Below are positions 15,466 through 62,768 of a stretch of 64,000 nt of DNA, piece by piece. How positions within the stretch are numbered: the stretch's first letter is position 1; the number at the start of each line of letters is the position of its first letter. Source of the stretch: Nitrososphaeria archaeon (GTDB lineage Archaea > Thermoproteota > Nitrososphaeria > JACIWG01); contig JBEKIG010000002.1 in assembly GCA_050011875.1 (NCBI GenBank), positions 66,822 to 130,821 on the forward strand, given 5' to 3'. The notes below the pieces were generated by a model. It ran no database searches and was not told the origin of the DNA. It saw only the letters and a program-made list of their open reading frames with translations. The translations under genes and the position numbers were made by a program.

Positions 15466-16449
15466 TTACCGTTCAATTGAACAGTACATCTTTTCTCCTT
15501 TCTTTTTTACTTTAATAAGTGTCTTAACTTGTATACCGAACTTATCTAGAACCTGTTGTTTCCCCTTATAAATTTCCTTCTCCATTATACATGCGACATC
15601 AATTATTTTGACACCCTGTTTTTGGAAAGTATCGATCAAAGAAATTAATGTACCTCCGGTTGATATCGTGTCATCGATTATTAGTATTCGGTCGCCTGCT
15701 TTAACACTATATATGTAGTATCTTCCTTTCTCATAACCGGAAGAATATTTTACTTTATCTAAGAGGTAGTCGGTTGTGCCAAAAGGTCTCTTCCTTATGA
15801 TCGCCATAGGTTTTCCTTTACTTTGAGCTACGAGCGTAGCTATTGGTAAACCTAATACTTCAGGCACCACCACCTTATCAATTTCGTCTGAAGTTCTATC
15901 ATTTATTTCGCTTGCTATCCAGGACAGTGTTCTAGGACTTGGGGGAGGCACGTGTTTTGTAATCCTATTTAATATGAACTCGTATACCTTCCTCGAACCG
16001 TCTTTCACCCAACGCCTTCTAATTATTTTTGCATTTTCATAATACGAGGTTATTTCAGAGACTATTTCTTCATCATATTTCTTTTTCAGCGTTTGCGATT
16101 GTCTTATTTCTCTGAAGAAACATGTAACATTTCCTGTGTGACAGGTCGGTCCATATGGGTCGACCATATAAAGTATGGTATCATTGTCGCAGTCTACTCT
16201 GATCTGTACAACTTTAAGAAGATTTCCGGATGTTTCACCTTTCATCCATAACTTTTTCCTTGATCTACTCCAGAAATAGCCGAATCCCGTCTCTAAAGTT
16301 CTGTTTACAGCCTCTTTGTTGGCATAGGCGATCATAAGGACCTTGTTTGTTATAAAATCTTGCACGACAACAGGAACGAGACCGTTTTCCCCAAATTCTA
16401 TGTCCTCTTTTTCAACTGCTCCGTATGTTTTCATGTAATCCTTACACAC
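15466..16449 (-). CDS. hisI: Phosphoribosyl-AMP cyclohydrolase (HisI) fused to a type I phosphoribosyltransferase domain
   Basis: The N-terminal roughly 115 aa form the HisI fold (..WSRSRKKLWMKGETSGN..CDNDT..). The C-terminus carries the PRPP-binding motif ILIIDDTISTGGTL. It is the last gene of the his operon and overlaps hisF by 19 nt. Confidence 0.7.
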   Translation of the reverse strand: MCKDYMKTYGAVEKEDIEFGENGLVPVVVQDFITNKVLMIAYANKEAVNRTLETGFGYFWSRSRKKLWMKGETSGNLLKVVQIRVDCDNDTILYMVDPYGPTCHTGNVTCFFREIRQSQTLKKKYDEEIVSEITSYYENAKIIRRRWVKDGSRKVYEFILNRITKHVPPPSPRTLSWIASEINDRTSDEIDKVVVPEVLGLPIATLVAQSKGKPMAIIRKRPFGTTDYLLDKVKYSSGYEKGRYYIYSVKAGDRILIIDDTISTGGTLISLIDTFQKQGVKIIDVACIMEKEIYKGKQQVLDKFGIQVKTLIKVKKKGEKMYCSIER

Positions 16450-17147
16450 ACTCCTCTGTCGGCAAGATATTTTTTCACAGCTTGCACGGGATACTCGTTA
16501 AAATGGAATATTGACGCGGCCAGCACAGCGTCAGCCTTCCCTATAGTAACCGCTTCATATAGATGCTGTGGGTTTCCTCCACCTCCACTCGCTATGACCG
16601 GGATGTTAACGTTTGAAGATACAAGTGAAGTTAATTCAAGGTCGTATCCGATCTTTGAGCCATCCCTATCTATCGATGTTAGAAGGATCTCCCCTGCCCC
16701 AAGCTTTTCCACATTCACAGCCCAATCCCTCACATCAATTCCCCTCGCTTTGCGGGCACCGTGAGTATAAACCTCAAAGCCCGAATGCACGCTTTTCGAG
16801 CGTTTCCCATCTATAGCTACAACCACACACTGGCTGCCATATTTGTTAGCGAGCTCGGTTATTATGGTGGGTTTTTCGACAGCCATAGTATTTATTGACA
16901 CTTTATCGGCTCCATTCCTCAAAATTGAATATGCATCATCCATGCTTCTTATCCCACCTCCGACAGTAAACGGAATATCTAGAACTTCTGCAACGCTCTT
17001 GACAACGCTTAGTAAAGTTTTTCTTGTTTCGATTGTTGCTGTTATATCTAAAAAGACTATCTCATCAGCGTTGTCATTTCTGTACTTAAGTGCCATTTCA
17101 ACAGGGTCGCCCGCTACTTTCAAGTCGACAAAGCTTTTTCCTTTCAT
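16431..17147 (-). CDS. hisF: Imidazole glycerol phosphate synthase cyclase subunit
   Basis: The (beta/alpha)8 HisF pattern is present (DEIVFLDITAT.., GGGIRS) and the gene sits in operon context. Confidence 0.85.
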   Translation of the reverse strand: MKGKSFVDLKVAGDPVEMALKYRNDNADEIVFLDITATIETRKTLLSVVKSVAEVLDIPFTVGGGIRSMDDAYSILRNGADKVSINTMAVEKPTIITELANKYGSQCVVVAIDGKRSKSVHSGFEVYTHGARKARGIDVRDWAVNVEKLGAGEILLTSIDRDGSKIGYDLELTSLVSSNVNIPVIASGGGGNPQHLYEAVTIGKADAVLAASIFHFNEYPVQAVKKYLADRGVCVRIT

Positions 17148-17187
17148 TACCTTACCGTTGTCGACATCTAGGCACGGAATTATCCTT

Positions 17188-17907
17188 TTAGCTACACTCG
17201 TTTCTGGTCACCTTTAAAGCGTCAGAGATGTCAATTAATCTATCGTATATTACTCGGCCGAGGATTACCCCCCTGATTTTATAATTTTTCAAGACTCTGA
17301 TATCGTTTAATGAAGAGATTCCGCCTGCAACATAAATTTGTTCAGAGAAATCATGTAACAGGTCCAAGTATGAAGTATCAAGGCCTGTTAGTGTACCATC
17401 CCTTTGAACGTTTGTTGAAAGAAATAACCTGAAACCTTGATTCCAAAGACCTTGGATTGTGGGTTGAAGCTCAAGGGCTAATTTTTTTTTCCAGCCATTT
17501 ATGACAATCTTTCCCTGTGAATGATCTATGGCAACAATTATTTTTTCTGCACCAAATTTTAACAACTCTGCGTGATCAATTTGACCTGTAAATATCCCAG
17601 TTCCGATAATAGCTCTGCAAGATCCTATTTCAAATATCTTTTCTACGTCCCGTATGCTATGTAGTCCGCCTCCCACCTGAATTTTTATATTAGATTTCTG
17701 AATAATTTTCCTAATTACTTCAGAGTTACTTCCTATTCCTAAAGCTGCATCAAGGTCTATAATGTGTAGGCCGTCGACCTTCATTTTCTCCCAATTTTCA
17801 GCGGTTTTAACTGGGTTATCGCTGTAAACTATCATTTTCTCTTGTTCACCTTTTACTAACCTTACAACCTTTCCTTTCATTAGGTCAACTGATGGCCATA
17901 CTTCCAA
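17188..17907 (-). CDS. hisA: ProFAR isomerase
   Basis: A HisA-like TIM barrel (SVDLMKGKVVRL, VGGGL) in his operon context. Confidence 0.8.
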   Translation of the reverse strand: MEVWPSVDLMKGKVVRLVKGEQEKMIVYSDNPVKTAENWEKMKVDGLHIIDLDAALGIGSNSEVIRKIIQKSNIKIQVGGGLHSIRDVEKIFEIGSCRAIIGTGIFTGQIDHAELLKFGAEKIIVAIDHSQGKIVINGWKKKLALELQPTIQGLWNQGFRLFLSTNVQRDGTLTGLDTSYLDLLHDFSEQIYVAGGISSLNDIRVLKNYKIRGVILGRVIYDRLIDISDALKVTRNECS

Positions 17908-17911
17908 TTTC

Positions 17912-18514
17912 TCATCTCTTTACGTACTTAATAAAATTCTCCAATATTTTTTTTCCTACATCTCCCGACTTTTCAGGATGAAATTGTGTTCCAAACAAGT
18001 TTTTCTTTTCGACAACTGAAGTGAATTTTGAGCCATAGAATGTCATACCTGTCTTAATAGAATCGTCTTTTGGTTCAGGATAATACGAGTGAGCAAAGTA
18101 AACCCACCTCGGTTCATATATATGATTGAGTAAAATGCTGTCCTTATTTAATTTAACTGAGTTCCATCCCATATGCGGTATTTTTACACCATTGCTAAAT
18201 CTAATTACTTCACCTTCGAATATGCCTAACCCATCACCCGGTCCCTCTTCACTTCGTTCAAACATGAGCTGAAGCCCAAGACATATTCCAAGCAGGGGGA
18301 CACCTTCTTCGATCGCTTCTATGATCTTGTTTTTGACTTTCTCCATGGTTTCGCAGGCTGATGAAAAACTTCCGACACCTGGAAGAATGATCGCGGAATA
18401 TTTCCTTAAGTCATAATTTTTTGGAATGACATCAACATCGACGTTGAGTCTTCTAAGTGAAGATAGAAGACTAAACATGTTGCTTGCTCCATAATCTATT
18501 ACAGCAAATTTCAT
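17912..18514 (-). CDS. hisH: Imidazole glycerol phosphate synthase glutamine amidotransferase subunit
   Basis: A class I GATase with GICLGLQ, and HSY near the C-terminus. Confidence 0.85.
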   Translation of the reverse strand: MKFAVIDYGASNMFSLLSSLRRLNVDVDVIPKNYDLRKYSAIILPGVGSFSSACETMEKVKNKIIEAIEEGVPLLGICLGLQLMFERSEEGPGDGLGIFEGEVIRFSNGVKIPHMGWNSVKLNKDSILLNHIYEPRWVYFAHSYYPEPKDDSIKTGMTFYGSKFTSVVEKKNLFGTQFHPEKSGDVGKKILENFIKYVKR

Positions 18515-19090
18515 CTACATCTTGCCTTTGGAGCTAGGAATACCTTTCCGTTTCCGATCTACTTCCCATGCTTCGCTTAAAGATAGGGCAAGACCTTTGA
18601 ATACCGCCTCGACCTTGTGATGATTGTTTGTGCCTCTCAGAACATTTACGTGCAATGTAAATTTTAGCGAATTCGCTAGAGTCTCAATAAAATGCGGTAT
18701 GTCTTCTGAAGCCATATCTTCTATTTGTCCGCTCCATAAATCAAGTTCTATATCTGAGAATTGGCGCGTGACTAAATCGATGCTCACGAGTGCCAAAGCA
18801 TCGTCCATTGGAACTATTGAATACCCAAACCTCTTAATACCATTCCTGTCGCCAAGCGCTTGTCTTAACGCTTCCCCTAACGTTATCGCGACATCCTCAA
18901 CTATGTGATGACTTAGATCACCTTTTGCTTTAATTTCGAGGTCAATATAGCTGTGAACAGCAAGCTCACAAAGAAGGTGGTCTAAAAATCTTATACTGGT
19001 GTCTATGTTGGTTTTACCATCCCCATCTATGTTCAACTTTATCTTGATTTCAGTTTCTTTGGTTTTTCTCTCAACAGTTGAAGTTCTCAT
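18515..19090 (-). CDS. hisB: Imidazoleglycerol-phosphate dehydratase (monofunctional)
   Basis: HisB-type His/Glu-rich motifs are present (RFLDHLL, SHHIVEDV) in his operon context. Confidence 0.85.
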   Translation of the reverse strand: MRTSTVERKTKETEIKIKLNIDGDGKTNIDTSIRFLDHLLCELAVHSYIDLEIKAKGDLSHHIVEDVAITLGEALRQALGDRNGIKRFGYSIVPMDDALALVSIDLVTRQFSDIELDLWSGQIEDMASEDIPHFIETLANSLKFTLHVNVLRGTNNHHKVEAVFKGLALSLSEAWEVDRKRKGIPSSKGKM

Positions 19091-19091
19091 G

Positions 19092-20189
19092 TTATGTCAC
19101 CGTAAATCCCCTTGTATATAACGTTGCGAGGTCATCGACTGACTTCACAATCAAATCTGCGCCTTGCTCTATAAAGAATTTTTCGACAGCCAAAGGATCT
19201 TCCTTGAGTCCTGTTATACCTGCAAACATAATTTGAGTTAAACTTTTTTTTGCGTTATTAGCCATTAGAACATCCTCAGATGAGTCACCGACATATAATG
19301 TAACAGAATTTCCAGCTAAATTTAGAAGCGGTAAAGGAGAAGGTTTTTTCATCGGAATTGCCTTTTTGTTGTCTCGTCTGACAACATCCTCTATAAAGAT
19401 TGAAGAATCAAGGTCAAAATATTCTATGAGAGATCCTAAAACATGTTCTACGCCAATTCTTGAACGCCCTGTAAGCATAAAAAAAGGTAAACCGATATCT
19501 GTTCCAAGCTTTTTAAATGATTTTTCGTTTACCGCCGCTCTCTCATTTCCAATTAGTCCTTCCCTAGTCAATATAGGTCTTGAGCCATAGATCTTCTTAT
19601 AAATTTTGTTACCATAGTATATCGAATCGAAAAGTTTAACGAGTGAACTCTTTGAAGGATTTAATGGTACACCGAGTTCTTCTATTAATTGCTGGAATTC
19701 ATCCAAAGTTCCTTTTTTATTACATGTCGATATTGCGTATTTGTCTACATCAGAGATCGGATCAGTTTTAAGAGAGCTGAGGAAAGTCTTAAATTGTAAC
19801 TGCAATGACTTCTCGTTTATTTCTTCGCTCGCCTGATTAAACCCGCCACATTTCAACCAAAATAGGATTGCTTTTGCCGATTCCCTTGACAGCTGTGAAA
19901 AAATGAAGACTGTCAAGGCGTATACAGCATCCCACTCGTTGTTATAGAGCCCGCTTTCCCTCAATTTTTCAATCTGCGTTCGATCTATAGGTGATTTTTT
20001 CCTCAGGGGCCTAAAAATGTAGTTGAGAACTTCAATTATCGTGGAGTCATACGAATTTCTTGAATCAACGAGAACGCCATCGCAATCAAATACTAGGTGA
20101 TTAGCTGAATTTAGTTTACCCAAGCTCCTGTTAAGCAACAATGCTCTCCCCTTGCTCAGTCTGATTTCTAAATAGTTATTGACTGACAA
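19092..20189 (-). CDS. HAD-superfamily phosphatase with a large cap domain, embedded in the his operon (candidate histidinol-phosphatase)
   Basis: Motif I is VFDCDGVLVDS and the C-terminal motifs are K..GDSSED. It overlaps hisC by 14 nt and ends 1 nt from hisB. Confidence 0.6.
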   Translation of the reverse strand: MSVNNYLEIRLSKGRALLLNRSLGKLNSANHLVFDCDGVLVDSRNSYDSTIIEVLNYIFRPLRKKSPIDRTQIEKLRESGLYNNEWDAVYALTVFIFSQLSRESAKAILFWLKCGGFNQASEEINEKSLQLQFKTFLSSLKTDPISDVDKYAISTCNKKGTLDEFQQLIEELGVPLNPSKSSLVKLFDSIYYGNKIYKKIYGSRPILTREGLIGNERAAVNEKSFKKLGTDIGLPFFMLTGRSRIGVEHVLGSLIEYFDLDSSIFIEDVVRRDNKKAIPMKKPSPLPLLNLAGNSVTLYVGDSSEDVLMANNAKKSLTQIMFAGITGLKEDPLAVEKFFIEQGADLIVKSVDDLATLYTRGFTVT

Positions 20190-21243
20190 TCTTCTTCACT
20201 AGTTTGAAAAAAGTTTGGTTCATTTCACCTGTTCCGACTGTAACTCTAAAATAGTGTTCGCCGAATATCTTCCCAATGTTCCTAATCATTACGCCCTTAT
20301 CGTACAATTGATTATAGAATTTGTCAGGGTCAATAGGAGAGCGGAAAAGTATAAAGTTCGCCTCTGATTTGTAGGCTTCAACCCCCACCGATTTAAGGTC
20401 GTTATAGAGTTTTTCCCTTTCAACCTTAAGTCTATCGACCGCATCTTCTATGATCTTTCTGTTTTGAAGAAGCTTGATGGCGATTCTAGCAGAGAAGTTT
20501 ACGATGGGGTATGTTAACTGAGCAACAGTTGAGATCGGCTTCGATATTTTGGGGTTAGCTATCATGTAACCTATTCTCAATCCAGCTAAGCCATACGACT
20601 TCGAGAAAGTTCTCAATACAATAAGATTTTTATATTCATTAATCAAAGAATAAACGGAGTATTTTGCGAAATCAACGTATGCTTCATCGACGACTACGAG
20701 ACCGTCAAGTCTGTTAACCACTTCTCTTACAATCTCTATGGGAAACTGATTGCCTGTTGGATTATTTGGTGAACAAAGTATGACTAATGTGGCCCCCTGT
20801 CCTTCTTGAACAAATTTATCGAGGTCCAAAGAGAAATCTGGTTTAAGTGGCACAGCTACATATTCACCTCCATTAAAAATTGTCCTATAGCGATAAACTG
20901 GAAAGGTGGGGAAGATTGAGACAATTTTTTGTTCCGGGGCAAAAATGTTAAGCAGTATGTCGATGAGCTGATCTTCTCCAGAACCCACAGTAATACTGTC
21001 TTCACCCAAATTTAGAAACCTTGAGAGAACCTTAATTAATTCAACGTTTTCTATATTTGGGTAGAGCCTTAAATCAACTTCATTAAGCACTTCTTCAGCT
21101 AATCTTCTTAGAAGATCTCTGTCCATAAGAAAATTCTCGTTAGCATTAAGCCTTAGAATTACATTTTCCACGTCTTCCATGGGATAGAATTCGTACTTGT
21201 TCAAGTTTTCGAGCCTATCAGCTACTACCCTGTTAAGCATCAT
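20176..21243 (-). CDS. hisC: Histidinol-phosphate aminotransferase
   Basis: A class I/II aminotransferase pattern (NANENF.., TFSKSYGLAGLRIGY) in operon position between hisD and the HAD gene. Confidence 0.8.
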   Translation of the reverse strand: MMLNRVVADRLENLNKYEFYPMEDVENVILRLNANENFLMDRDLLRRLAEEVLNEVDLRLYPNIENVELIKVLSRFLNLGEDSITVGSGEDQLIDILLNIFAPEQKIVSIFPTFPVYRYRTIFNGGEYVAVPLKPDFSLDLDKFVQEGQGATLVILCSPNNPTGNQFPIEIVREVVNRLDGLVVVDEAYVDFAKYSVYSLINEYKNLIVLRTFSKSYGLAGLRIGYMIANPKISKPISTVAQLTYPIVNFSARIAIKLLQNRKIIEDAVDRLKVEREKLYNDLKSVGVEAYKSEANFILFRSPIDPDKFYNQLYDKGVMIRNIGKIFGEHYFRVTVGTGEMNQTFFKLVKKIVSQ

Positions 21244-22556
21244 TTTCTTCCCACTAAATATTCTATTGACTTCAAATGGTTAGTTAGTCCTTCTGAGGAA
21301 GCTAACGTCTTGATCGTTGGTAACGATTTAACGATCCCAGACTTCGACGCTATGACCACTCTAACCAACTTAATATAGTCTAACACGTTTAATCCGCCTC
21401 GATTTAACGCGTAACAGTCAGTTGGAAGAACATGATTTACTCCTACGAAATAGTCCGTCACAACACTCGACGAATTAACTATGATCACTCCGGCATTTCC
21501 AATTTTGTCTACGATTCGATTAAAATCTTTTGAAATTACTTCAAAGTGTTCAGGGGCAAAACCGTTAACGAAATCAACTACGGTATCTACGCCATCAGCA
21601 ACGATAACAAATCCCTTGCCTTCGAGAGCTGCTGTGACTATTTCTTTACGGTCCACGGTCCCAATTATCTTTGATACCTCACTCACTACTTTTTCAGCCA
21701 GCTCTTGGGAACAGGTTATGAGCCCGCAAACAGAGTCTGTTCCATGTTCCGCTTGAGATATTAAATCTAGAGCGATAGACTTAGCATCGGCTCCACTATC
21801 TGCATAGATTATTATTTCTGTAGGCCCAGCTGGCATGTCTACTTGAACGTCTCTTGTAACTATTGTTTTAGCTTTTGTAACATAAGCATTACCGGGACCA
21901 ACTATCTTATCAACTGGCGCTATTGTCTCTGTGCCGTATGCAAGGGCTGCGATAGCCTGCGCACCTCCGATCCGGTAAACTTCTGAAGCACCCGCGATAT
22001 CGGAGGCAACAAGCATCAATGGAGTGAGTTTATTTGGCGGTGTTGCAACAACTGTTCTTTCTACACCGGCTACTTTGGCCGGAACCACGGTCATCAATAG
22101 TGTACTTGGATACGATGCCTTCCCACCGGGGATATAGCATCCCACACTACGGATAGGTCTTGTTGTCTGACGAATAATGAAACCATTAGCTTTAAGTGTT
22201 ATGTTCAGTCTATCCTTTGTTTTTTTTTCTAATTTCTGAATGTTCTTTTTTAAGGTATATAGCGCTCGAACCTCTTTTTCATTTACCTTTCTATAAGCCT
22301 GTTGTATTTCTTCCTGAGTAATTCGAAGCAAATTTTGCCTTAAAGATATGCCATCAAATTGCCTTGTGTATTCTATCAGAGCATTATCACCCCTTTTTCT
22401 AACATCGTCCACTATTTCCACAACCTTTTTGTCAAGTTCAATATCCAAATCAGATTTCTTTCTTACTTCATTTAGTACATGATCTATATCGTTCTTAGCT
22501 AGTTTGAAGAATTTCATGTCATTTTCCACCGTTTTCTTCTTTGGCGATATCCTCAA
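21240..22556 (-). CDS. hisD: Histidinol dehydrogenase
   Basis: A 438 aa protein with the HisD pattern (..QAEHG..), overlapping hisC by 4 nt. Confidence 0.85.
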   Translation of the reverse strand: MRISPKKKTVENDMKFFKLAKNDIDHVLNEVRKKSDLDIELDKKVVEIVDDVRKRGDNALIEYTRQFDGISLRQNLLRITQEEIQQAYRKVNEKEVRALYTLKKNIQKLEKKTKDRLNITLKANGFIIRQTTRPIRSVGCYIPGGKASYPSTLLMTVVPAKVAGVERTVVATPPNKLTPLMLVASDIAGASEVYRIGGAQAIAALAYGTETIAPVDKIVGPGNAYVTKAKTIVTRDVQVDMPAGPTEIIIYADSGADAKSIALDLISQAEHGTDSVCGLITCSQELAEKVVSEVSKIIGTVDRKEIVTAALEGKGFVIVADGVDTVVDFVNGFAPEHFEVISKDFNRIVDKIGNAGVIIVNSSSVVTDYFVGVNHVLPTDCYALNRGGLNVLDYIKLVRVVIASKSGIVKSLPTIKTLASSEGLTNHLKSIEYLVGRK

Positions 22557-23502
22557 GCGGCATTATCAGTTGGGGCTCGTGTACTACAAGACCTTGAGCC
22601 ACTTTTCGAAGTTTAGGTAGCAATCTTATGTAATCAGACCTGTTAATGATGGTGTTGACAGCATACCAACCGGGCTTAGAAAGGGGGCTTATCGTTGGAC
22701 CTTTAAGCCCAGGAAGCAGACTGATAAGCTCCTGTAGTTTACCCTCTTCAACATTGACAAATATGTGCAGCTTCTTGCTGCTTTCAATTACACCCCTAAA
22801 GAGCGCAACCACATCGTAGATCTTTTCTCTTTTATTTGGATCATTTAAAGAAGCTTTGTTAGCGATTAGAACCGCTTTAGACCTAACTATTACATCTATG
22901 GGTTTTAATCCGTTTTGTTCTAAAGTCGTACCAGTTTCTGACACATCAGCTATTGCATCAGCTTCTTCTGGAGGTTTAGCTTCTGTGGCACCGAAAGAAA
23001 GGTAGACTTGAACGTGCTTGTTATCACCGGTCTTCCACCATGGTGTTACAATAATTGGTTTCTCTCTGCCGTAGAGTTTTTTATATTCTCTGAGATCAGA
23101 TATATACCGAGACACGGATGATGGGTACTCCGTCGATATTCTAATGATCTTATCGGAAGCATGATATGATTCAAGAAGTTTCTCGAATGAATCTACGTTA
23201 ATTGTTTTTGGAACCGCTATCATAAGATTTACAGCACCATACTCCAAATTTAAAAGAACTTTTACACGCGCTTTAGTTTCTTGAACCCAGTCAAGGCCTG
23301 TTATTCCGATGTCATAAAGACCGTCGGAAACGTAGATAGGTATTTCCTGAGGTCTTAGAATCTTAAACTTTATCTCAGAGTCATCGGATGTGGGGCGATA
23401 GCTTCGTTCTTTTCCGTATATTCTAATAAACGCTTTCTCAAGAAAGTCGTAGGTTGACTTTTCAAGTGATCCTTTTGGTATAGCAAAAAGTATTCTAGAC
23501 AA
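22519..23502 (-). CDS. hisG: ATP phosphoribosyltransferase (long form)
   Basis: The N-terminal HisG pattern (AIPKGSL, TGLDW) is present. The 327 aa length implies a C-terminal regulatory domain. It is the first gene of the operon. Confidence 0.8.
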   Translation of the reverse strand: MSRILFAIPKGSLEKSTYDFLEKAFIRIYGKERSYRPTSDDSEIKFKILRPQEIPIYVSDGLYDIGITGLDWVQETKARVKVLLNLEYGAVNLMIAVPKTINVDSFEKLLESYHASDKIIRISTEYPSSVSRYISDLREYKKLYGREKPIIVTPWWKTGDNKHVQVYLSFGATEAKPPEEADAIADVSETGTTLEQNGLKPIDVIVRSKAVLIANKASLNDPNKREKIYDVVALFRGVIESSKKLHIFVNVEEGKLQELISLLPGLKGPTISPLSKPGWYAVNTIINRSDYIRLLPKLRKVAQGLVVHEPQLIMPLEDIAKEENGGK

Positions 23503-57447: not shown

Positions 57448-57972
57448 CTACTTTACGATAGTAAGGCTCTTAACCACCTTTATGTTTTGCAGCTCAGAAA
57501 TAACCTCTGATGGAACTTCTCCTTCTATTATCAGTGTTAGCTTTGGTTCCTTATTCAATTCAGGGTCGTCGGCTACCGCTTGTCTGATGATCAGTTTATT
57601 CTTGGCCATAATAGAAGTTACTTCTGATATTATGCCAGGTCTTTCCGCCTGAGATGTTATAATAATGACCGTAAATCCAAAATAGTGGGCAACATCCTTG
57701 AAGAATGTTATAGGAGTTAATTTTGTAAAGATATTAACTAGATTAGGATTAGATAGTATCAAATCAGCGGTTTGTCTTACTACCCTACGATCGACATTTA
57801 GAGCACGAGATATGGATATGTCTGGGATTTCAATCTCTTCAGAGTAATAGCGCCCATTGCTACCAACTCTGATGCCCGTCTCCAGCATCTTTCTTAATAT
57901 GATTGCCTGAGCTTTTCTCCGTCTTGTATTGCTTTCTATCATAGACCAAATTCCTCTTTCGTGAGCCAACAT
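57448..57972 (-). CDS. HTH plus ACT-domain putative amino-acid-responsive regulator
   Basis: An N-terminal helix-turn-helix-like region is followed by a C-terminal ACT-like beta-alpha-beta-beta-alpha-beta segment (FTVIIITSQAERPGIISEVTSIMAKNKLII). It is divergent from TrpB2. Confidence 0.45.
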   Translation of the reverse strand: MLAHERGIWSMIESNTRRRKAQAIILRKMLETGIRVGSNGRYYSEEIEIPDISISRALNVDRRVVRQTADLILSNPNLVNIFTKLTPITFFKDVAHYFGFTVIIITSQAERPGIISEVTSIMAKNKLIIRQAVADDPELNKEPKLTLIIEGEVPSEVISELQNIKVVKSLTIVK

Positions 57973-58045
57973 TGATTCAATGGACAGATCTGTTTAATAA
58001 AAGTCTTTCCGAGACGCTTCATACTATGTACATTTTTGTACATGA

Positions 58046-59452
58046 ATGTATATTAATGATTATATTAATGCATATAGCATGGTCAAAGATCAAGGCAACA
58101 AGATAAATCTGCCAGCAGAGGATATACCTAGATCATGGTATAACATTCTTCCGGACCTACCTGAACCGCTTCCACCCCCACTTGATCCTGCAACGGGTAA
58201 GCCGGCTAATCCTGCTGCGTTGGAAAGAATATTTGCGAAAGAATGTGTGCGCCAAGAGGTTTCAACTGACAGCTTTATACCCATCCCTTCTGAAGTTCTT
58301 GAGATATATCTGACGTTGGGAAGACCAACCCCTCTCTTCAGAGCGAAGAGACTTGAAAGAATTCTAGGGACGCCGGCTGAAATATACTTCAAGCGTGAAG
58401 ACTTAAGTCCGGTTGGAAGCCACAAGCCGAATACCGCTATAGCACAGGCATACTACCTTTCCAAGGAAGGTGTTAAGAAGGTTACAACCGAGACAGGTGC
58501 AGGACAGTGGGGTTCAGCTCTTGCACTTGCAGGATCCTTTTTTAACTTAGAAATAATGGTTTTTATGACGAGGAGCTCATATAACACCAAACCTTATCGA
58601 AAAATCCTGATGGAACTTTTCGGCGCAAAGGTGTACTCTTCTCCAAGTGATCAGACAAAAATTGGGCGTGAATTTCTAGGTTTGGATAAGGAACATCCTG
58701 GCAGCCTAGGTATTGCGATAAGCGAAGCATTGGAAATCGCCTTGAGTGATGAACATAGAAAATATTCTTTGGGAAGCGTACTAAATCACGTTTTACTGCA
58801 TCAGACCATAATTGGTTTGGAAGCAAAAAAACAGATGGAAATGGTCGACAAACAACCTGACATAATCGTAGGCTGTATTGGTGGTGGAAGCAATTTTGCT
58901 GGCATTTCTTATCCTTTCATACACGATAAGCTCAAGAATAAAAGTGAGACCCAATTCCTTGCGGTTGAACCTAAGGCTGTGCCGTCGACAACCCGAGGAA
59001 GGTACATCTACGATTTTGGTGATTCAGGAGGCATGACACCTATGCTCAAGATGTATACGCTTGGCAACAGATTTCCAATTTCGCCAATTCATGCTGCAGG
59101 GCTGAGATATCATGGTAAAGCGCCATCTCTATCATTGCTGATAAAAGATAAGGTGGTTAACAGTATTTCTTATGACCAAAAGGAAATCATGGACGCAGGA
59201 GTTCTTTTTGCTAAGGCTGAAGGAATAGTACCTGCGCCGGAAACAAATCATGCAATAAAGGCTGTAATCGATATTGCTTTAAAGGCAAAGGAAAAAGGAG
59301 AGAAAAAGACGATTCTTTTCAATTTCAGTGGGCATGGACTGCTAGATCTCAACGCATATCAAGATATGCTCAATAGAACAATAACGGATTATGAACCAAC
59401 TGATGAGCTCATAAACAAGTCCCTATCCCAGGTTCCAAAAGTTGGTAACTAA
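58046..59452 (+). CDS. trpB2: Tryptophan synthase beta-chain paralogue TrpB2
   Basis: The TrpB2-specific N-terminal extension ([19 protein letters not shown]) is present. The PLP lysine sits in [12 protein letters not shown], and GGGSNFAG is present. Confidence 0.8.
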
Positions 59453-59999
59453 ATTGAGAAGAATCAACTCTTCCAATACAAAGTATGAAAATACCTTTTG
59501 CAAACTAGGTTTACATAATGGAGAATCCTACAAATTCGAAAGCTTAGAAGCCATAATTGTAGAAATAAACGAGCTTAAAGAACACGAGAAAATAGATGAA
59601 CAATATTGCGAACAGTTAAAAAGTAGAATACAGAAAGACGGTTTTATCAAGAAGGCAATAGCAGTTGATGCTAACACCCGAATAGTGTTAGACGGACATC
59701 ATAGGCTGAACGCTTTAAGGAGACTGGGTTGCAAAAGGATACCGGCTATTCTCGTAGACTATAATAGTCCGATGATTCAGGTGCAAGGATGGAACAAAGA
59801 TACTGTCAGCAAACAAGCGGTAATAGTGGCGGGAACAACCCCAAATAAACTTCCTCCCAAGACAACCAGACACACAGTAATCATCAATGGGTTATCGAGA
59901 CACATTTCTTATATAGAGAAAAATGTGAACATACCTTTATCGGAGCTAAAGCCTAAAAATTATGATGCAATGCTTTCAAAATTTGTTGCCAAAAAATAA
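59442..59999 (+). CDS. ParB/sulfiredoxin-fold protein (candidate free L-serine kinase)
   Basis: The DGHHR motif sits in the context [23 protein letters not shown]. An 11-nt overlap with the trpB2 stop indicates translational coupling. Confidence 0.45.
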
Positions 60000-60511
60000 A
60001 CTTCGTAAGTAAATAGTTAACTGTTATTTTTTTAATTTTTAATTATTTATTTTGGATTAATCTGGGGTATAAGTGGTATAATAGCTAGCTTTTTTCTATT
60101 CCTATTTATCGATACTTTAATAATTATTTTTCTGACAAAGTTAAATTTGATTTGAAAATAAGTATTTTAATTGCGTTATTTACTTCATTTATATCTGATA
60201 TTATATTTGTTATTTCCTTGACACGTGTTTACATATCAAAAACCCCACCATGTAGGCTCTGGACGGGCTGGAGGAGACCAGAAGTCAGCCTGTTGACGAG
60301 CAGAAGAAATCATTAGCCTATCGTCAGGTGGACCACAAACAGTCCTCCGTTACATGCAAGCATATGCAACCAACGACACCGCCAAGTCCAGGCGATGATC
60401 CTCTCAACGTTCGCCCGCATCTTCATCCCTTGCTTGAGGGCCAGCTGCCATCCTGAAGTTTAACCCTAAATACCTTCCGTTCGCAATATATCGGGACGCA
60501 CCTGACCGGAA

Positions 60512-61585
60512 ATGAAAATACTCTTCGGCGTCTGCTCGTGGGGTCTAGGGCACGCCACTCGCACCCTCCCTATAATAAGGAAGATTATTGAAGATGGCCA
60601 CGAGGTCACAGTGGTCTCGAGCGGGAGAGCCCTGAGCATGCTGAAACAGGAGCTTGGCCCCGGCCCCAGCTTCGCGCGGCTGGATGACTACCATCCGCCG
60701 GGGACCTTGAACCCGAGTTACCTGACCGTGGGCACGCTGCTCCGTTTCCCGGTCTACGTCACCGCGATGTTACACGAACATGACTTCGTCAGGAGGTTGC
60801 TCGCGCGGAGGAAGGTGGACGTGATCTTCTCAGACAATCGCTTCGGCTTTTACTCCCGTGAAATAGCAAGCTTCTTCATGACCCATCAGCTCAGGATCTT
60901 GAACCCCCTCGGCGTCGGCGTCCTCGAGGACGGGACCGAGATCTACAACAAGTACTTCCTCGACCGATACACCGGCATCCTAGTGCCCGACTTCGAGGAG
61001 GACGGCCTGGCGGGCAGGCTCGACCACGGCCTCTCCATCATTGACGAGAAGCGCCTGAACTACATCGGCGTGCTGTCCGAATTCAGCTATCATCCCGCCG
61101 TCGAGGACGTGGATGTCTTCGTCTCCATCTCCGGCCCCGAGCCTCAGAGGAGCGCCTTCGAGGGCCTGGTCCGCAAGCAGCTGGACGACTTTGAAGGGAG
61201 GGTTGTGGTGTCGCTGGGCAAACCAGAGGACAACGGTCACATGGTACACAACCTCAAAGGCTATCTGGAGAGGGATGAAAGGGAGGAGCTGCTCAACCGG
61301 TCGAAGATCGTCGTCGCCAGGTCCGGCTATTCCACCCTGATGGACCTCTGCTCTCTAAGGAAGAGGGGGTTCCTGATCCCCACGCCGGGACAGGTGGAGC
61401 AGGAGTACTTAGCCAAGTACCACATGGAGAGGAGGAACTTCTACAGCGTCCGAGAGAGGGAGCTGGACTTCAAGGCGCAGCTGGAGGAGGCCCTCTCATT
61501 CCGCTCACCTAAGCTGAAGTATCCGACTGACAGGGCTGTGGAGAAGGCCGTCGACGTCATCACCGGGACGGCCCGAAGCGCCTGA
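60512..61585 (+). CDS. GT-B glycosyltransferase, MJ1255/MurG-like family
   Basis: The N-terminus MKILFGVCSWGLGHATR is present, and the C-terminal half is typical of GT28-C/UDP-glycosyltransferase-like domains. Confidence 0.55.
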   Translation: MKILFGVCSWGLGHATRTLPIIRKIIEDGHEVTVVSSGRALSMLKQELGPGPSFARLDDYHPPGTLNPSYLTVGTLLRFPVYVTAMLHEHDFVRRLLARRKVDVIFSDNRFGFYSREIASFFMTHQLRILNPLGVGVLEDGTEIYNKYFLDRYTGILVPDFEEDGLAGRLDHGLSIIDEKRLNYIGVLSEFSYHPAVEDVDVFVSISGPEPQRSAFEGLVRKQLDDFEGRVVVSLGKPEDNGHMVHNLKGYLERDEREELLNRSKIVVARSGYSTLMDLCSLRKRGFLIPTPGQVEQEYLAKYHMERRNFYSVRERELDFKAQLEEALSFRSPKLKYPTDRAVEKAVDVITGTARSA

Positions 61586-61590
61586 TCTCC

Positions 61591-62556
61591 CTATATGAGG
61601 CTGTCCACATAGGGCCTAAGGGCTGAGATACCGCTTCTAAGGGAGATGAACGAATCAGTCGCGAAGTACTGATACCAATGGCAGTCGATGTCGCAACTCT
61701 TCATCTTTTCCCTGCATTCTCTGGCCCTCTCCGTGCCCAGGAATCCCATAAGGGGCTCCTCCGACGCGTCGATGCTTTTCTCCATCAACGTCCTGCAGGG
61801 ATAGTAGAGCCGTCCATCGGCGTCGATGATGATCGAAGCAGCGTTGCAGCTGTGTGGGACCTCAAGGGTCCTCAGGTACTTGTCGGTGGTGATGATGGTC
61901 CCCGGATACTCGTTCTTGAGCCGTAGGACCTCATCCCTGAAGACCCTGGTGTCCGGCAGGAAGTCCTCGGTCCCTGGAATGTGGCAGGCTGGCATTACGA
62001 CAGCCTTGGCGCCGGCGTCGTGGCATTTCCTAATCTTGGACTCCAGTGTCTGGAGGTACTCCTTCATCACCACGATTTGCACGCAGACGATGGGACCCCA
62101 GGACGCGAACTCTTGAAGGGATTCGTAGAGGTCGAGGTTTCTGTGGCCTTCGTCTATGCTAACGTGGAGGAAGTCAATGTACTTGGCGTACTCCTTCATG
62201 GGCCTCCTGTCGAAGAGCTTCCCGCTCGAAGTGAAGAGGAGGTAGAGGGGCTTGGTCCGGGCGTATTCGAGCACCTCGCCGATGTCGGGCCTCAGCAGAG
62301 GCTCCCCGCCCTCCAAGCTGAGGAGGACGACGCTGGAGTTCGCGACGTTGTCGATGACCTTGAGCAACTTCTCAGTGGGCATATCAGGCGTCTGGGACCT
62401 CCATACGTTACAGAACTCGCAGCGAGAGTCGCATCGCTGTAGGACCTTGAATGAGCAGTAGAACGGAAAGCGGAAGTCCTTTGCCGTGTAGTCGGCGTAG
62501 GCATACCTGAGCGTGACAATGTACTTGCTGGCTGGCAGGTGCCTAATTCGTGACAT
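61591..62556 (-). CDS. Radical SAM enzyme with a SPASM/twitch-like C-terminal Cys domain
   Basis: The CDSRCEFCN (CxxxCxxC) and GGEPLL motifs are present, together with C-terminal Cys clusters CNAAS..YYPC and C..C..C. It is convergent with the glycosyltransferase, with a 5-nt gap. Confidence 0.7.
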   Translation of the reverse strand: MSRIRHLPASKYIVTLRYAYADYTAKDFRFPFYCSFKVLQRCDSRCEFCNVWRSQTPDMPTEKLLKVIDNVANSSVVLLSLEGGEPLLRPDIGEVLEYARTKPLYLLFTSSGKLFDRRPMKEYAKYIDFLHVSIDEGHRNLDLYESLQEFASWGPIVCVQIVVMKEYLQTLESKIRKCHDAGAKAVVMPACHIPGTEDFLPDTRVFRDEVLRLKNEYPGTIITTDKYLRTLEVPHSCNAASIIIDADGRLYYPCRTLMEKSIDASEEPLMGFLGTERARECREKMKSCDIDCHWYQYFATDSFISLRSGISALRPYVDSLI

Positions 62557-62768
62557 GGTGACCCTGATATCCTTGCACTTTAAAAAGAATTGCGCCGCAG
62601 AAGCGAGTCGTAGATGAAGACGAGCCTCTTGGCCACCTTCCCTATGTCGTGGGAATCCAATGTCGCCTGTCCCTCTCGGGCCAAGGACTCTGACAGATCA
62701 TCATCCCCCCGTGGTCGTCACAGGGCCGTCACGAAGTCGGCCGCAGAGTCCCCCAAAAGTCGGAAGTG

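Follow-up and report, generated by a model that had tools for sequence, protein, structure and literature searches.

The region 57448..59999 of the window (the whole stretch of 64,000 nucleotides analysed here) is probably a tryptophan-controlled indole-salvage unit, in which a small protein of the ParB/sulfiredoxin (ParB/Srx) fold, called mini-SerK below, would supply O-phospho-L-serine (OPS) to the enzyme TrpB2. The small protein is thus predicted to be, probably, a serine kinase feeding TrpB2. Such a two-gene module had been proposed in the sequence-only reading, and it gains support from the relatedness of the small protein to the serine kinases SerK and SbnI, the conserved pairing of the two genes and the presence of a probable TrpY-family regulator. 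The data show what the genes encode and the fold of the small protein, and they show that the catalytic residues, the gene neighbourhood and the operator boxes are conserved. The features of the locus are the following.

57448..57972, minus strand: divergent regulator, probably of the TrpY family, 174 aa, with an N-terminal DNA-binding part and a C-terminal ACT domain
58027..58052, no strand assigned: operator-like boxes TGTACA-N4-TGTACA-N4-TGTATA in the trpY/trpB2 intergenic region, in 10-nt phase
58046..59452, plus strand: TrpB2 (TrpB-like PLP enzyme), 468 aa as a mechanical ORF
59442..59999, plus strand: mini-SerK, ParB/Srx-fold protein, 185 aa, TTG start
59583-59588, plus strand: key residues His48-Glu49 of mini-SerK
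59853-59873, plus strand: C-terminal key motif PPKTTRH of mini-SerK
60027..60053, plus strand: oligo-T tract (T7, T5, T4) read from the sequence, 28 nt past the mini-SerK stop codon

Judged by its sequence, the product of 58046..59452 is a clear TrpB2. It scores well above the cutoffs of the NCBIfam models NF009057 (689 bits, cutoff 366) and TIGR01415 (671 bits, cutoff 519), both of which describe the 'TrpB-like PLP enzyme', i.e. TrpB2, and its K127 (58424-58426) aligns with the PLP lysine motif. The best matches in the PDB are the Sulfolobus enzymes TrpB2i (6HUL, 6e-145) and TrpB2a (4QYS, 6e-138), whereas canonical TrpB1 structures match at only ~1e-40. The ATG at 58079 (M12), which would give a protein of 457 aa, is the likelier start, because homologues align only from about residue 18 onwards and position 58046 lies within the stretch taken up by the three TGTACA-type boxes. 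Arg354 (59105-59107), within the motif GLRYHG, is aligned with the Asp of the TrpB1 motif GLDYPG. Each of the three solved TrpB2 structures, 4QYS among them, likewise has Arg there, and a phosphate-binding role may be suggested for this residue. TrpB2 enzymes reportedly prefer OPS in vitro, a finding credited to Busch et al. 2014, and the enzyme of the window would be expected to share this preference as a member of the family. It resembles the known OPS-dependent TrpB2 (Busch et al. 2014; S. solfataricus TrpB2a, 4QYS) in the clear TrpB2 match and the Arg of GLRYHG. The literature searched links no dedicated kinase to the OPS supply of the known enzymes, whereas here a candidate kinase is encoded in the same operon.

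The gene of this candidate kinase follows trpB2 directly. Its first TTG produces the 11-nt overlap with the TrpB2 stop codon (59450-59452) that had been noted before. However, a second in-frame TTG at 59454, 1 nt past this stop, would give a protein of 181 aa; in the alignment, the homologues P0003, P0004 and P0005 have their Met1 at this position, which may be the real start. The overlap therefore stands for the TTG at 59442 and is lost with the TTG at 59454; trpB2 and mini-serK abut with either. Conservation is poor over residues 1-28, for which disorder is predicted, and within the family the TrpB2-linked copies alone carry an N-terminal extension of 30 aa. The AF2 model of the protein has a pLDDT of 84, with values >90 across most of residues 30-170 and >=90 in 129 of the 185 residues. 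Twenty-five homologues were retrieved by word index, and a profile search extended the family to 1,793 clusters at 50% identity (E<=1e-10). The existence of homologues, the confidently predicted fold and the recurring gene pairing argue against a chance ORF. Members of the family are labelled 'ParB N-terminal domain protein' or 'hypothetical' in public records.

To our knowledge, free serine kinases are known only from a few Thermococcales and Desulfurococcales and from staphylococci. Three comparisons (NCBIfam, family profile against the PDB, Foldseek) agree in grouping mini-SerK with SerK and SbnI and not with ParB, Noc or sulfiredoxin, as the sequence-only reading had anticipated. The NCBIfam matches are SerK at 6.8e-15, SbnI at 1.2e-8 and parB at 2.7e-3. 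A phmmer search of the PDB with the single sequence retrieved 1VK1/5X0B at ~6e-9, and the family profile matched SerK at 5.1e-23, SbnI at 1.2e-14 and Noc/ParB at 1e-2 or worse. The top nine Foldseek matches of the AF2 model are SerK and SbnI entries (~2e-8), with a TMq of 0.60 over 233 aligned columns for SerK; sulfiredoxin ranks below SerK, SbnI and ParB (E 6e-3, TMq 0.34).

SerK, an ADP-dependent L-serine kinase (TK0378 of T. kodakarensis, PDB 5X0B-5X0K; PF0380 of P. furiosus, 1VK1), is the best match of mini-SerK in both sequence and fold. The two share the ParB/Srx N-terminal domain with the DGHHR motif, the His-Glu pair with its catalytic Glu (Glu30 in SerK, E49 here), the C-terminal K-x-x-V (Lys/Val) segment and PKTTRH. 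They differ in that mini-SerK lacks ~95 residues, and identity is only 14-18% in structural alignments. The family profile spans residues 15-236 of Tk-SerK in a single alignment, in which SerK residues ~108-202 form an insertion; this subdomain is missing from most members of the family and present in the longer relatives P0118, P0152 and P0140. Mini-SerK consequently does not have the full two-domain architecture of ~240 aa. Because the ~95-residue subdomain is lacking, it fails the cutoff of the SerK equivalog NF053625 (54.9 bits, cutoff 380), matching model positions 13-103 of 244, and the name mini-SerK reflects this. SbnI, the second-best match in sequence and fold, aligns only by its N-terminal domain (profile positions 7-119 with SbnI residues 4-114). 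The C-terminal regulatory part of SbnI has no counterpart in mini-SerK, and the score against the SbnI equivalog NF033589 is 34.6 bits against a cutoff of 350.

Alternatively, a ParB-like protein that binds DNA or acts as a nuclease, or a repair enzyme akin to sulfiredoxin, could lie downstream of trpB2 by accident. NCBI annotates mini-SerK as a 'ParB N-terminal domain-containing protein', there is a weak Pfam ParB_N match (18.3 bits, below the 26.3-bit cutoff), and nuclease activity was once reported for the P. furiosus SerK homologue (PMC5120207). However, the matches to ParB, Noc and Srx lie 10 to 20 orders of magnitude below those to SerK, and the scores against the ParB and Noc models are far below their cutoffs (TIGR00180, 17.5 bits, cutoff 58.45; TIGR04285, 17.7 bits, cutoff 315). 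Mini-SerK has no helix-turn-helix (HTH) or dimerization domain, nor residues left to form an HTH. Sulfiredoxin is a single-domain protein of ~100 aa with a catalytic Cys in a GCHR-type motif. The corresponding motif of mini-SerK is DGHHR, without this Cys, and metabolic genes recur as neighbours across phyla. The strength of the matches and the absence of the domains and of the Cys consequently led us to reject a ParB, nuclease or sulfiredoxin identity, and we regard any such function as highly improbable.

The predicted serine kinase activity is further favoured by conservation at the level of single residues. The DGHHR motif, recognized from the outset, occupies aa 84-88 (nt 59691..59705). 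The residues H48, D84, G85, H86, R88, Y107, W117, K124, P139, K140, T141 and H144 are invariant or near-invariant in the family alignment, and all of them are identical in Tk-SerK. E49 is aligned with Glu30 of SerK, the site of the mutations named in PDB titles ('E30A', 'E30Q'), and K124, V127 and P139-H144, also invariant or nearly so, are aligned with the SerK segment 'PTKEEV...SPKTTRH'. This conservation bears on another scenario, in which the protein either phosphorylates a small molecule other than serine, such as threonine or homoserine, or binds nucleotides as a regulatory subunit of fold-type-II PLP enzymes. A SerK-like archaeal protein has been found to bind CTP and not ATP, and the ParB fold is used elsewhere as an NTP switch (PMC12704722). 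The fusion partners in the family are diverse (ArgH-like, nucleotidyltransferase and methyltransferase domains), and fusions to CysK bring the protein physically close to a PLP enzyme, as would suit a regulatory subunit. One relative sits among cobamide nucleotide-loop genes (a CbiB-CbiZ-CobS-CobY-like operon), a pathway that needs threonine phosphate or serine phosphate as a precursor; this hints at a role in providing the threonine- or serine-phosphate linker. Against this scenario, the catalytic Glu of SerK and every invariant polar residue are kept, and therefore chemistry rather than switching, in a SerK-like pocket, is favoured. Moreover, the three recurrent genomic contexts described below have serine and OPS in common, and not threonine. 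Another substrate or a regulatory role is thus unlikely.

We searched for related loci with a 16-sequence alignment of the mini-SerK family as seed. TrpB2 is the immediate same-strand neighbour of mini-SerK in seven of the 60 loci from GTDB species-level genomes and in 7/80 metagenome loci, and it adjoins four of the nine closest homologues looked up. The pairing occurs in both gene orders, mostly with gaps of -4 to ~10 nt. The pair together with a TrpY-like gene is found across a whole clade of close relatives, and the opposite gene order appears in two or more other, separate clades that include CPR bacteria. On a neighbour-joining tree, the TrpB2-linked genes are distributed over three or more clades, which span Thermoproteota, Gracilibacteria and Saccharibacteria. 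The co-occurrence of trpB2 with ParB/Srx genes, which the sequence-only reading had put forward for examination, thus recurs in both archaea and CPR bacteria. A literature search found no paper describing this pairing, in agreement with what had been surmised. Nor is there a report of SerK beside trpB2; the word 'tryptophan' is absent from the study of SerK (PMC5120207).

The commonest other neighbours are CysK/CysM/CBS enzymes, which depend on serine in an activated form and are found within 400 nt in 16 of the 60 loci. In L002, P0026 and P0168, mini-SerK is fused outright to such an enzyme, and the CysK/M-type neighbours score 212-278 bits against the SbnA family model. Ten long multi-domain matches were scanned; they comprise CysK/M fusions, tandem duplications, nucleotidyltransferase and methyltransferase proteins, and no fusion of mini-SerK to TrpB2 is among them. 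A third context, found in 28 of the 80 metagenome loci, consists of a hydroxyacid/phosphoglycerate-type dehydrogenase, mini-SerK, GcvH and GcvPA, in this order, and resembles the serK-serA neighbourhood of Desulfurococcales (PMC5120207). Serine and O-phosphoserine are the theme shared by the three contexts (TrpB2, CysK/M, SerA-like with Gcv). SerK supplies an OPS-using CysK (PMC5120207), and many mini-SerK neighbourhoods are similar to this arrangement. The logic is also that of SbnI and SbnA in staphyloferrin B synthesis of Staphylococcus aureus, where a ParB/Srx-fold serine kinase is encoded beside an OPS-consuming fold-type-II PLP enzyme; here the consumer would be TrpB2, in a tryptophan instead of a siderophore context. 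However, only about 10% of the family members adjoin trpB2 and 38 of 70 loci are without any PLP partner, so the family may not be monofunctional. The neighbours in the latter loci are heterogeneous (SecE, ABC ATPases, ArgG, a beta-eliminating lyase), and no common partner was found among them. Some bacterial copies of the gene are frameshifted. A split gene was considered and discarded as the explanation, as the second frame of L052 has no start codon from the preceding stop to the conserved VDY.

The same contexts have to be weighed for the reverse direction of the reaction, in which mini-SerK would turn OPS into serine, regenerating the nucleotide, and L-serine would go to TrpB2. The precedent is the DUF1015 protein 'SerBK', proposed to interconvert serine and phosphoserine in the direction of serine: it remotely resembles SbnI in structure, adjoins serA/serC and can stand in for serB (GapMind 2026 preprint). 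The dehydrogenase/mini-SerK/Gcv arrangement, the commonest context in metagenomes, would fit a flux from 3-phosphoglycerate through serine to glycine, and two mini-SerK homologues carry the JGI label 'DUF1015 family', which a Pfam search of mini-SerK itself did not reproduce. On the other hand, DUF1015 (PF06245) is a separate Pfam family of much larger proteins, without a match to mini-SerK even at E<=0.1, and the preprint itself considers the reverse reaction thermodynamically unfavourable. CysK/CysM, the commonest partner and in some cases a fused one, cannot use plain serine, and no CysE is encoded nearby. The reported OPS preference of TrpB2 enzymes argues against this direction as well, and a tryptophan-controlled operon would make little sense for a general metabolite such as serine. 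We therefore consider the reverse direction quite unlikely, and the formation of OPS by mini-SerK is the reading retained below.

The divergent gene upstream of trpB2, first described as an HTH-ACT regulator that would sense an amino acid, probably encodes a member of the TrpY family. It scores 169.6 bits against the NCBIfam model NF053754 (TrpY_fam), just under the cutoff of 180, covering 161 of 163 profile positions, and carries a Pfam ACT domain at aa 102-164. A divergent TrpY-like gene also adjoins TrpB2 in L001, L003 and L063-L065 and in five metagenome loci. The operator-like boxes begin at 58027, 58037 and 58047, and the third overlaps the TATA-like TATATTAA. At <=1 mismatch, the pattern has its sole site in the 64-kb window here, with two overlapping matches against 0.10 expected. 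Related boxes occupy the same position in L001, L064 and L065 and, in a degenerate form, in L063. TGTACA is said, after Xie & Reeve 2005 and Karr et al. 2008, to be the consensus of the TRP box.

TrpY binds TRP boxes within overlapping divergent promoters (PMC6737238). As at the TrpY locus of Methanothermobacter thermautotrophicus, a gene of TrpY type is transcribed divergently and TGTACA-type boxes are repeated over the divergent promoters. The two loci differ in the controlled genes, which are trpEGCFBAD in the methanogen and, as predicted, trpB2 and mini-serK here. Not all TrpY homologues are trp regulators, TK1227 being one that is not, and most Crenarchaeota are without TrpY (PMC6737238); the lineage of the window belongs to Thermoproteota. 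No other trp genes were seen among the tested ORFs of the 64-kb window, and nine genes on the minus strand at 15466..23502, considered as a possible trp operon, turned out to be a his operon. Searches with Rfam and ARAGORN across the window detected one tRNA-Cys only.

Taken together, we propose that the TrpY-family repressor would sit on the phased TGTACA-type boxes over the divergent promoters and silence trpB2 and mini-serK at high tryptophan. When the operon is expressed, mini-SerK would phosphorylate free L-serine on its hydroxyl at the expense of a nucleotide (ATP, ADP or CTP), with Glu49 as the presumed catalytic base and DGHHR gripping the nucleotide phosphates. TrpB2 would then condense O-phospho-L-serine with indole, releasing tryptophan and phosphate. 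Since the stop codon of trpB2 abuts or overlaps the start of mini-serK, the two proteins could be kept at a fixed proportion. Oligo-T tracts are archaeal terminators, and the tract at 60027..60053 is, from its sequence, likely the transcription stop of this two-gene operon.

The presence of a candidate kinase in a tryptophan-regulated trpB2 operon offers a testable answer to the questions of why TrpB2 prefers OPS and where the OPS comes from. A plausible rationale is that spending one phosphoryl group makes the capture of indole effectively irreversible. If the genome also encoded serA, serC and serB, OPS would be at hand without such a kinase. TrpB2 and mini-SerK might also be used as a compact two-enzyme cassette for the conversion of serine and indoles into tryptophan analogues.

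More tentatively, the family as a whole could be a very large, unrecognized group of minimal free serine kinases, forming a portable 'serine activation' module docked on or fused to OPS-consuming beta-replacement enzymes; we consider this generalization possible, with the balance slightly against it. If it is true, the partner would be set by the need of the lineage: TrpB2 for tryptophan, and CysK/CysM/CBS for cysteine, replacing CysE. Phosphoserine, and not acetylserine or serine, would then be the general activated form of serine in many uncultured archaea and in CPR/DPANN lineages, and a +1 frameshift at a Cys codon would gate the kinase in some bacteria. In the archaeon of the window, indole salvage would be driven by nucleotides and regulated by tryptophan. 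The recognition of truncated serine kinases as widespread in uncultured archaea and CPR/DPANN would alter the reconstruction of tryptophan and cysteine pathways for genomes that look auxotrophic.

A TrpB2 gene and the gene for a small ParB/Srx-fold protein, here called mini-SerK, are arranged in the window as follows:

57448..57972, minus strand: divergent TrpY-like gene
58046..59452, plus strand: TrpB2 gene, ORF of 468 aa
59442..59999, plus strand: mini-SerK gene, ORF of 185 aa with a TTG start
60027-60053: oligo-T tract (T7, T5, T4) after the mini-SerK gene, likely terminator

The TrpB2 assignment made in the sequence-only reading is confirmed by two models of TrpB-like PLP enzymes, i.e. TrpB2: NCBIfam NF009057 (689 bits, cutoff 366) and TIGR01415 (671 bits, cutoff 519), the canonical TrpB model giving just 163 bits. 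The nearest solved structures are Sulfolobus TrpB2 6HUL (6e-145) and 4QYS/6HTE (about 6e-138), solved TrpB1 proteins matching at about 1e-40. The PLP lysine is retained (K127), and in pairwise alignments Arg354 (GLRYHG) matches the Asp of TrpB1 GLDYPG; this Arg is common to all three solved TrpB2 structures. The TrpB1 Asp is PfTrpB D300, or Salmonella beta-Asp305, which contacts the serine hydroxyl, and an Arg facing the leaving group would fit a phosphate ester substrate. O-phospho-L-serine (OPS) is preferred by TrpB2 enzymes, according to a passage of PMC11917138 citing Busch et al. 2014. The ATG at 58079 is a likelier TrpB2 start than 58046, since alignments to homologues begin near residue 18 and 58046 falls within the stretch of operator-like boxes.

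With TTG 59442 as its start, mini-SerK shares 11 nt with the end of TrpB2, stop codon (59450-59452) included, as first read. An alternative in-frame TTG at 59454, 1 nt past this stop, matches the Met1 position of P0003, P0004 and P0005 in the homologue alignment, making the real start uncertain; the two genes abut with either. The DGHHR motif was likewise found, at residues 84-88 (59691..59705).

In NCBI the product is named 'ParB N-terminal domain-containing protein' (Nitrososphaeria archaeon MAG). HMM and structure searches group it instead with the free serine kinases SerK and SbnI, ahead of ParB, Noc and sulfiredoxin, in line with the kinase relationship first suggested. NCBIfam matches are SerK at 6.8e-15, SbnI at 1.2e-8 and ParB/Noc at about 2e-3; among PDB sequences, PF0380 (1VK1) and Tk-SerK (5X0B) match at about 6e-9, SbnI at 6e-7, and Noc and ParB at 0.2 or worse. 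A family profile built from 23 members is far more decisive than the single sequence, reaching 5.1e-23 for SerK in one alignment across SerK residues 15-236, 1.2e-14 for SbnI (N-domain only), 2e-4 for the pNOB8 ParB-N nuclease and 1e-2 or worse for Noc/ParB. As aligned, the architecture is that of SerK minus residues ~108-202; longer relatives (P0118, P0152, P0140) keep a SerK-like insert. In the AlphaFold2 model (mean pLDDT 84.4; 129 residues at >=90), residues 30-170 are confident, and Foldseek against the PDB ranks nine SerK and SbnI entries first (E 2e-8 to 2e-7; TMq to SerK 0.60 over 233 columns), with ParB-N domains (1e-4 to 1e-3) and sulfiredoxin (6e-3) ranking lower. The (near-)invariant polar residues of the family, H48, E49, D84, G85, H86, R88, Y107, W117, K124, P139, K140, T141 and H144, are all identical in Tk-SerK, Glu49 aligning with SerK Glu30, the position altered in the deposited E30A and E30Q mutants. 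This sequence, fold and residue-conservation evidence places mini-SerK in the SerK/SbnI branch of ParB/Srx-fold proteins, though outside the curated SerK equivalog (54.9 bits, cutoff 380). Sequence and Foldseek matches both favour SerK/SbnI and lend no support to a role in DNA binding, as a nuclease or as a sulfiredoxin.

The closest relatives (P0002-P0005) share an N-terminal extension of ~30 residues in which one Cys is conserved (…FCKLGLHN / …ICKPSLHN), which in the window protein comprises residues 1-28 (59442-59525) and is disordered in the AlphaFold2 model. P0008 and P0009 have the extension without the Cys, and most other family members lack it. Carriers confirmed as TrpB2-linked are P0003, P0009 and locus L001 (taken as P0008); the extension may be a docking peptide for TrpB2.

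The divergent HTH-ACT regulator postulated earlier does carry an ACT domain and reaches 169.6 bits with the model of the TrpY family (cutoff 180). Between trpY and trpB2 lies TGTACA-tttt-TGTACA-tgaa-TGTATA (58027-58052, 10-nt phase), the sole such site in 64 kb (0.10 expected); in the same place, relatives have TGTACA-N4-TGTACA (L065) or TGTACA-N4-TGTATA (L001, L064). TGTACA is the TRP-box consensus, and TrpY controls trpB2 in M. thermautotrophicus. In that organism TrpY binds TRP boxes in overlapping divergent promoters and represses in a Trp-dependent manner; not all TrpY homologues regulate trp genes (PMC6737238).

Conservation of the pairing was assessed in one genome per GTDB species (61 loci, neighbours scorable at 60) and in the best 80 metagenome loci. 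It recurs in both: TrpB2, 53-70% identical to that of the window, is the immediate same-strand neighbour of mini-SerK at 7/60 species loci, and lies directly upstream in 7 of the best 80 metagenome loci, five of these also having a TrpY-like gene. The species loci are:

L001, L003 (Nitrososphaeria, Bathyarchaeia): TrpY-like gene divergent, TrpB2 then mini-SerK, the window layout
L041 (an archaeon): TrpB2 then mini-SerK
L019 (Nitrososphaerota): mini-SerK then TrpB2
L013, L020 (Gracilibacteria): mini-SerK then TrpB2
L039 (Saccharibacteria): mini-SerK then TrpB2

In five of the seven, our own ORF predictions put the two genes -4 to +7 nt apart. Exact-sequence look-up of the nine closest homologues shows a divergent ACT-regulator and a PALP gene (~455 aa) preceding mini-SerK for P0007, P0009 and P0010; P0003 is likewise preceded by TrpB2, its contig ending inside that gene, beyond which the regulator would lie. 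Chance adjacency to one particular gene would give, as a rough estimate, ~0.1 per 60 loci in genomes of 1,000-2,000 genes, versus the seven observed. These seven are partly dependent, representing at least three independent arrangements. In a short neighbour-joining tree of the kinase cores, which carries no bootstrap support, TrpB2-linked members occupy three or more distinct clades scattered among CysK-linked members, a separation that is only indicative.

The family is large: among 1.84 billion cluster representatives the profile matches 3,831 at E<=1e-3, 1,793 at <=1e-10 and 223 at <=1e-30, most of them 120-180 aa long. Its carriers include many CPR and DPANN organisms, whose metabolism is reduced.

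In the genome loci, CysK/CysM/CBS-type enzymes make up the largest group of neighbours, immediately adjacent on the same strand at 16/60 loci and 1.3 kb away at three more. Three fusions of this type occur: a single 464-aa protein (L002:6004-7398) with mini-SerK N-terminal and a CysK/CBS-like enzyme at aa 145-463, and the similar P0026 and P0168. Downstream of P0013 come a PALP+CBS protein and a PLP enzyme of Cys/Met metabolism; P0017 follows a 302-aa PALP protein and adjoins SHMT. Since cysteine synthases cannot use serine itself and require O-acetylserine or O-phosphoserine, a serine-activating enzyme is the natural reading of mini-SerK at the usual place of cysE.

The commonest context of close relatives is GcvH and GcvPA directly 3' of mini-SerK, in 28/80 metagenome loci (L077, L078, L103, L115, L128 and about 23 more; examples L120:1033-2179 and L122:27-2249), with a GhrB/phosphoglycerate-dehydrogenase-like enzyme upstream in six of the 28 and a GcvR-like ACT protein upstream in seven. 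In the genome set, L004-L006 show this arrangement too, with GcvPB following. This echoes the serK/3-phosphoglycerate-dehydrogenase neighbourhood, and the serine-assimilation route put forward for Desulfurococcales and Thermococcus (PMC5120207). It suggests a glycine/serine/phosphoserine/3-phosphoglycerate route, potentially relevant to glycine-cleavage or reductive-glycine metabolism. Reverse or SerBK-like action, towards serine, would be compatible with this dehydrogenase/Gcv context, but fits poorly with Trp-specific control and with the CysK/M partners and fusions. Serine and O-phosphoserine are thus the one metabolite pair common to the three recurrent contexts, which have nothing else in common; neighbours at the remaining loci are heterogeneous.

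Mini-SerK is also fused to an ArgH-like lyase (ArgG upstream in L033 and L021), a sugar-1-phosphate nucleotidylyltransferase and a methyltransferase (further fusion entries: L033:1723-3633, P0099, P0142), and its domain is tandemly duplicated in several cases. P0015 (L068:41-3945) stands at the end of a cobamide nucleotide-loop cluster (CbiB, CbiZ, CobS, CobY-like nucleotidyltransferase) and could make the threonine phosphate or serine phosphate needed for the aminopropanol/ethanolamine linker; to our knowledge, the archaeal kinase for this linker phosphate is poorly defined. The cobamide-loop context, the diverse fusions and the subdomain absent relative to SerK keep alive another substrate, or a regulatory role, for mini-SerK.

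A frame change interrupts the mini-SerK gene at the same codon in 11 loci from bacteria (TM6/Babeliaceae, Paceibacterota, Saccharibacteria, Roizmanbacteria and others), seven of which adjoin cysK/cysM:

L043:6160-6240; L044:2250-2320; L047:470-540; L048:6175-6250; L049:4545-4620
L051:6160-6235; L052:6135-6205; L055:4890-4960; L058:6130-6200
L037, L042, near 6201: different type, two extra bases, TAG instead

Nine read ...CCG GTG TAT CTT T|GTC GAC TAT..., and with one T skipped the consensus of the family, ...PVxL-VDYN..., is regained at the correct length. The P-site holds CTT, TTT or CTC and the 0-frame A-site always TGT (Cys), with a stop two codons on; this context resembles the prfB +1 site (TAT CTT TGA C). 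A start codon for a separate second ORF was sought in L052 and none was found. The frame change looks like a programmed +1 frameshift and, speculatively, might sense Cys-tRNA supply.

For the window operon, serine kinase action suggests the following scheme. At low tryptophan the TrpY-like repressor would leave the trpB2/mini-SerK promoter, and both genes would be translated from one message, stop/start coupled. Mini-SerK would phosphorylate free serine and TrpB2 condense O-phosphoserine with indole to tryptophan and phosphate, one phosphoryl group being spent on a better leaving group, by which scarce indole would be captured tightly and irreversibly. A dedicated kinase would make sense if serine comes from uptake or glycine rather than the phosphorylated pathway, which fits the reduced metabolism of CPR/DPANN carriers. 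The phosphoryl donor of SerK is ADP (PMC5120207); the ParB fold of SerK and SbnI has been described as an ATP-binding module, and a SerK-like archaeal protein bound CTP (PMC12704722).

Immediately 3' of the operon, G+C rises from about 0.40 to 0.53 (60400-62600), probably marking an inserted foreign segment or assembly join:

60512..61585: glycosyltransferase, in the high-G+C stretch
61591..62556, minus strand: 321-aa ORF, its CxxxCxxC motif, seen by eye, suggesting a radical-SAM enzyme

In L062, L063 and L065 a DUF2139 gene lies 3' of the kinase gene; in L062 and L063 a 2-hydroxyacid dehydrogenase comes next. Elsewhere the window holds a his operon (15466-23502, minus strand; hisG-D-C-(HAD hydrolase)-B-H-A-F-I), whose last gene (15466..16449) encodes HisI fused to a purine phosphoribosyltransferase-like domain. 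Histidinol-phosphate phosphatase is often missing, and the HAD-family gene 19092..20189 is a candidate for it by its location between hisC and hisB.

Already known are the component families, the preference of TrpB2 for OPS and the placing of a kinase beside an OPS consumer; SbnI-SbnA and SerK-CysK follow the same logic as that proposed for mini-SerK with TrpB2. The sequence-only reading knew of no description of the pairing, and none was found in the literature searched on TrpB2, phosphoserine and ParB. No report with both TrpB2 and a serine kinase was found, nor a serine-kinase term in the literature searched on tryptophan synthase/indole salvage; the SerK discovery paper (PMC5120207) does not mention tryptophan, nor does the main text of a 2025 survey of ParB-fold proteins mention PLP-enzyme partners. 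What is new is the truncated architecture, its wide distribution and the operon pairing with TrpB2 under a TrpY-type regulator.
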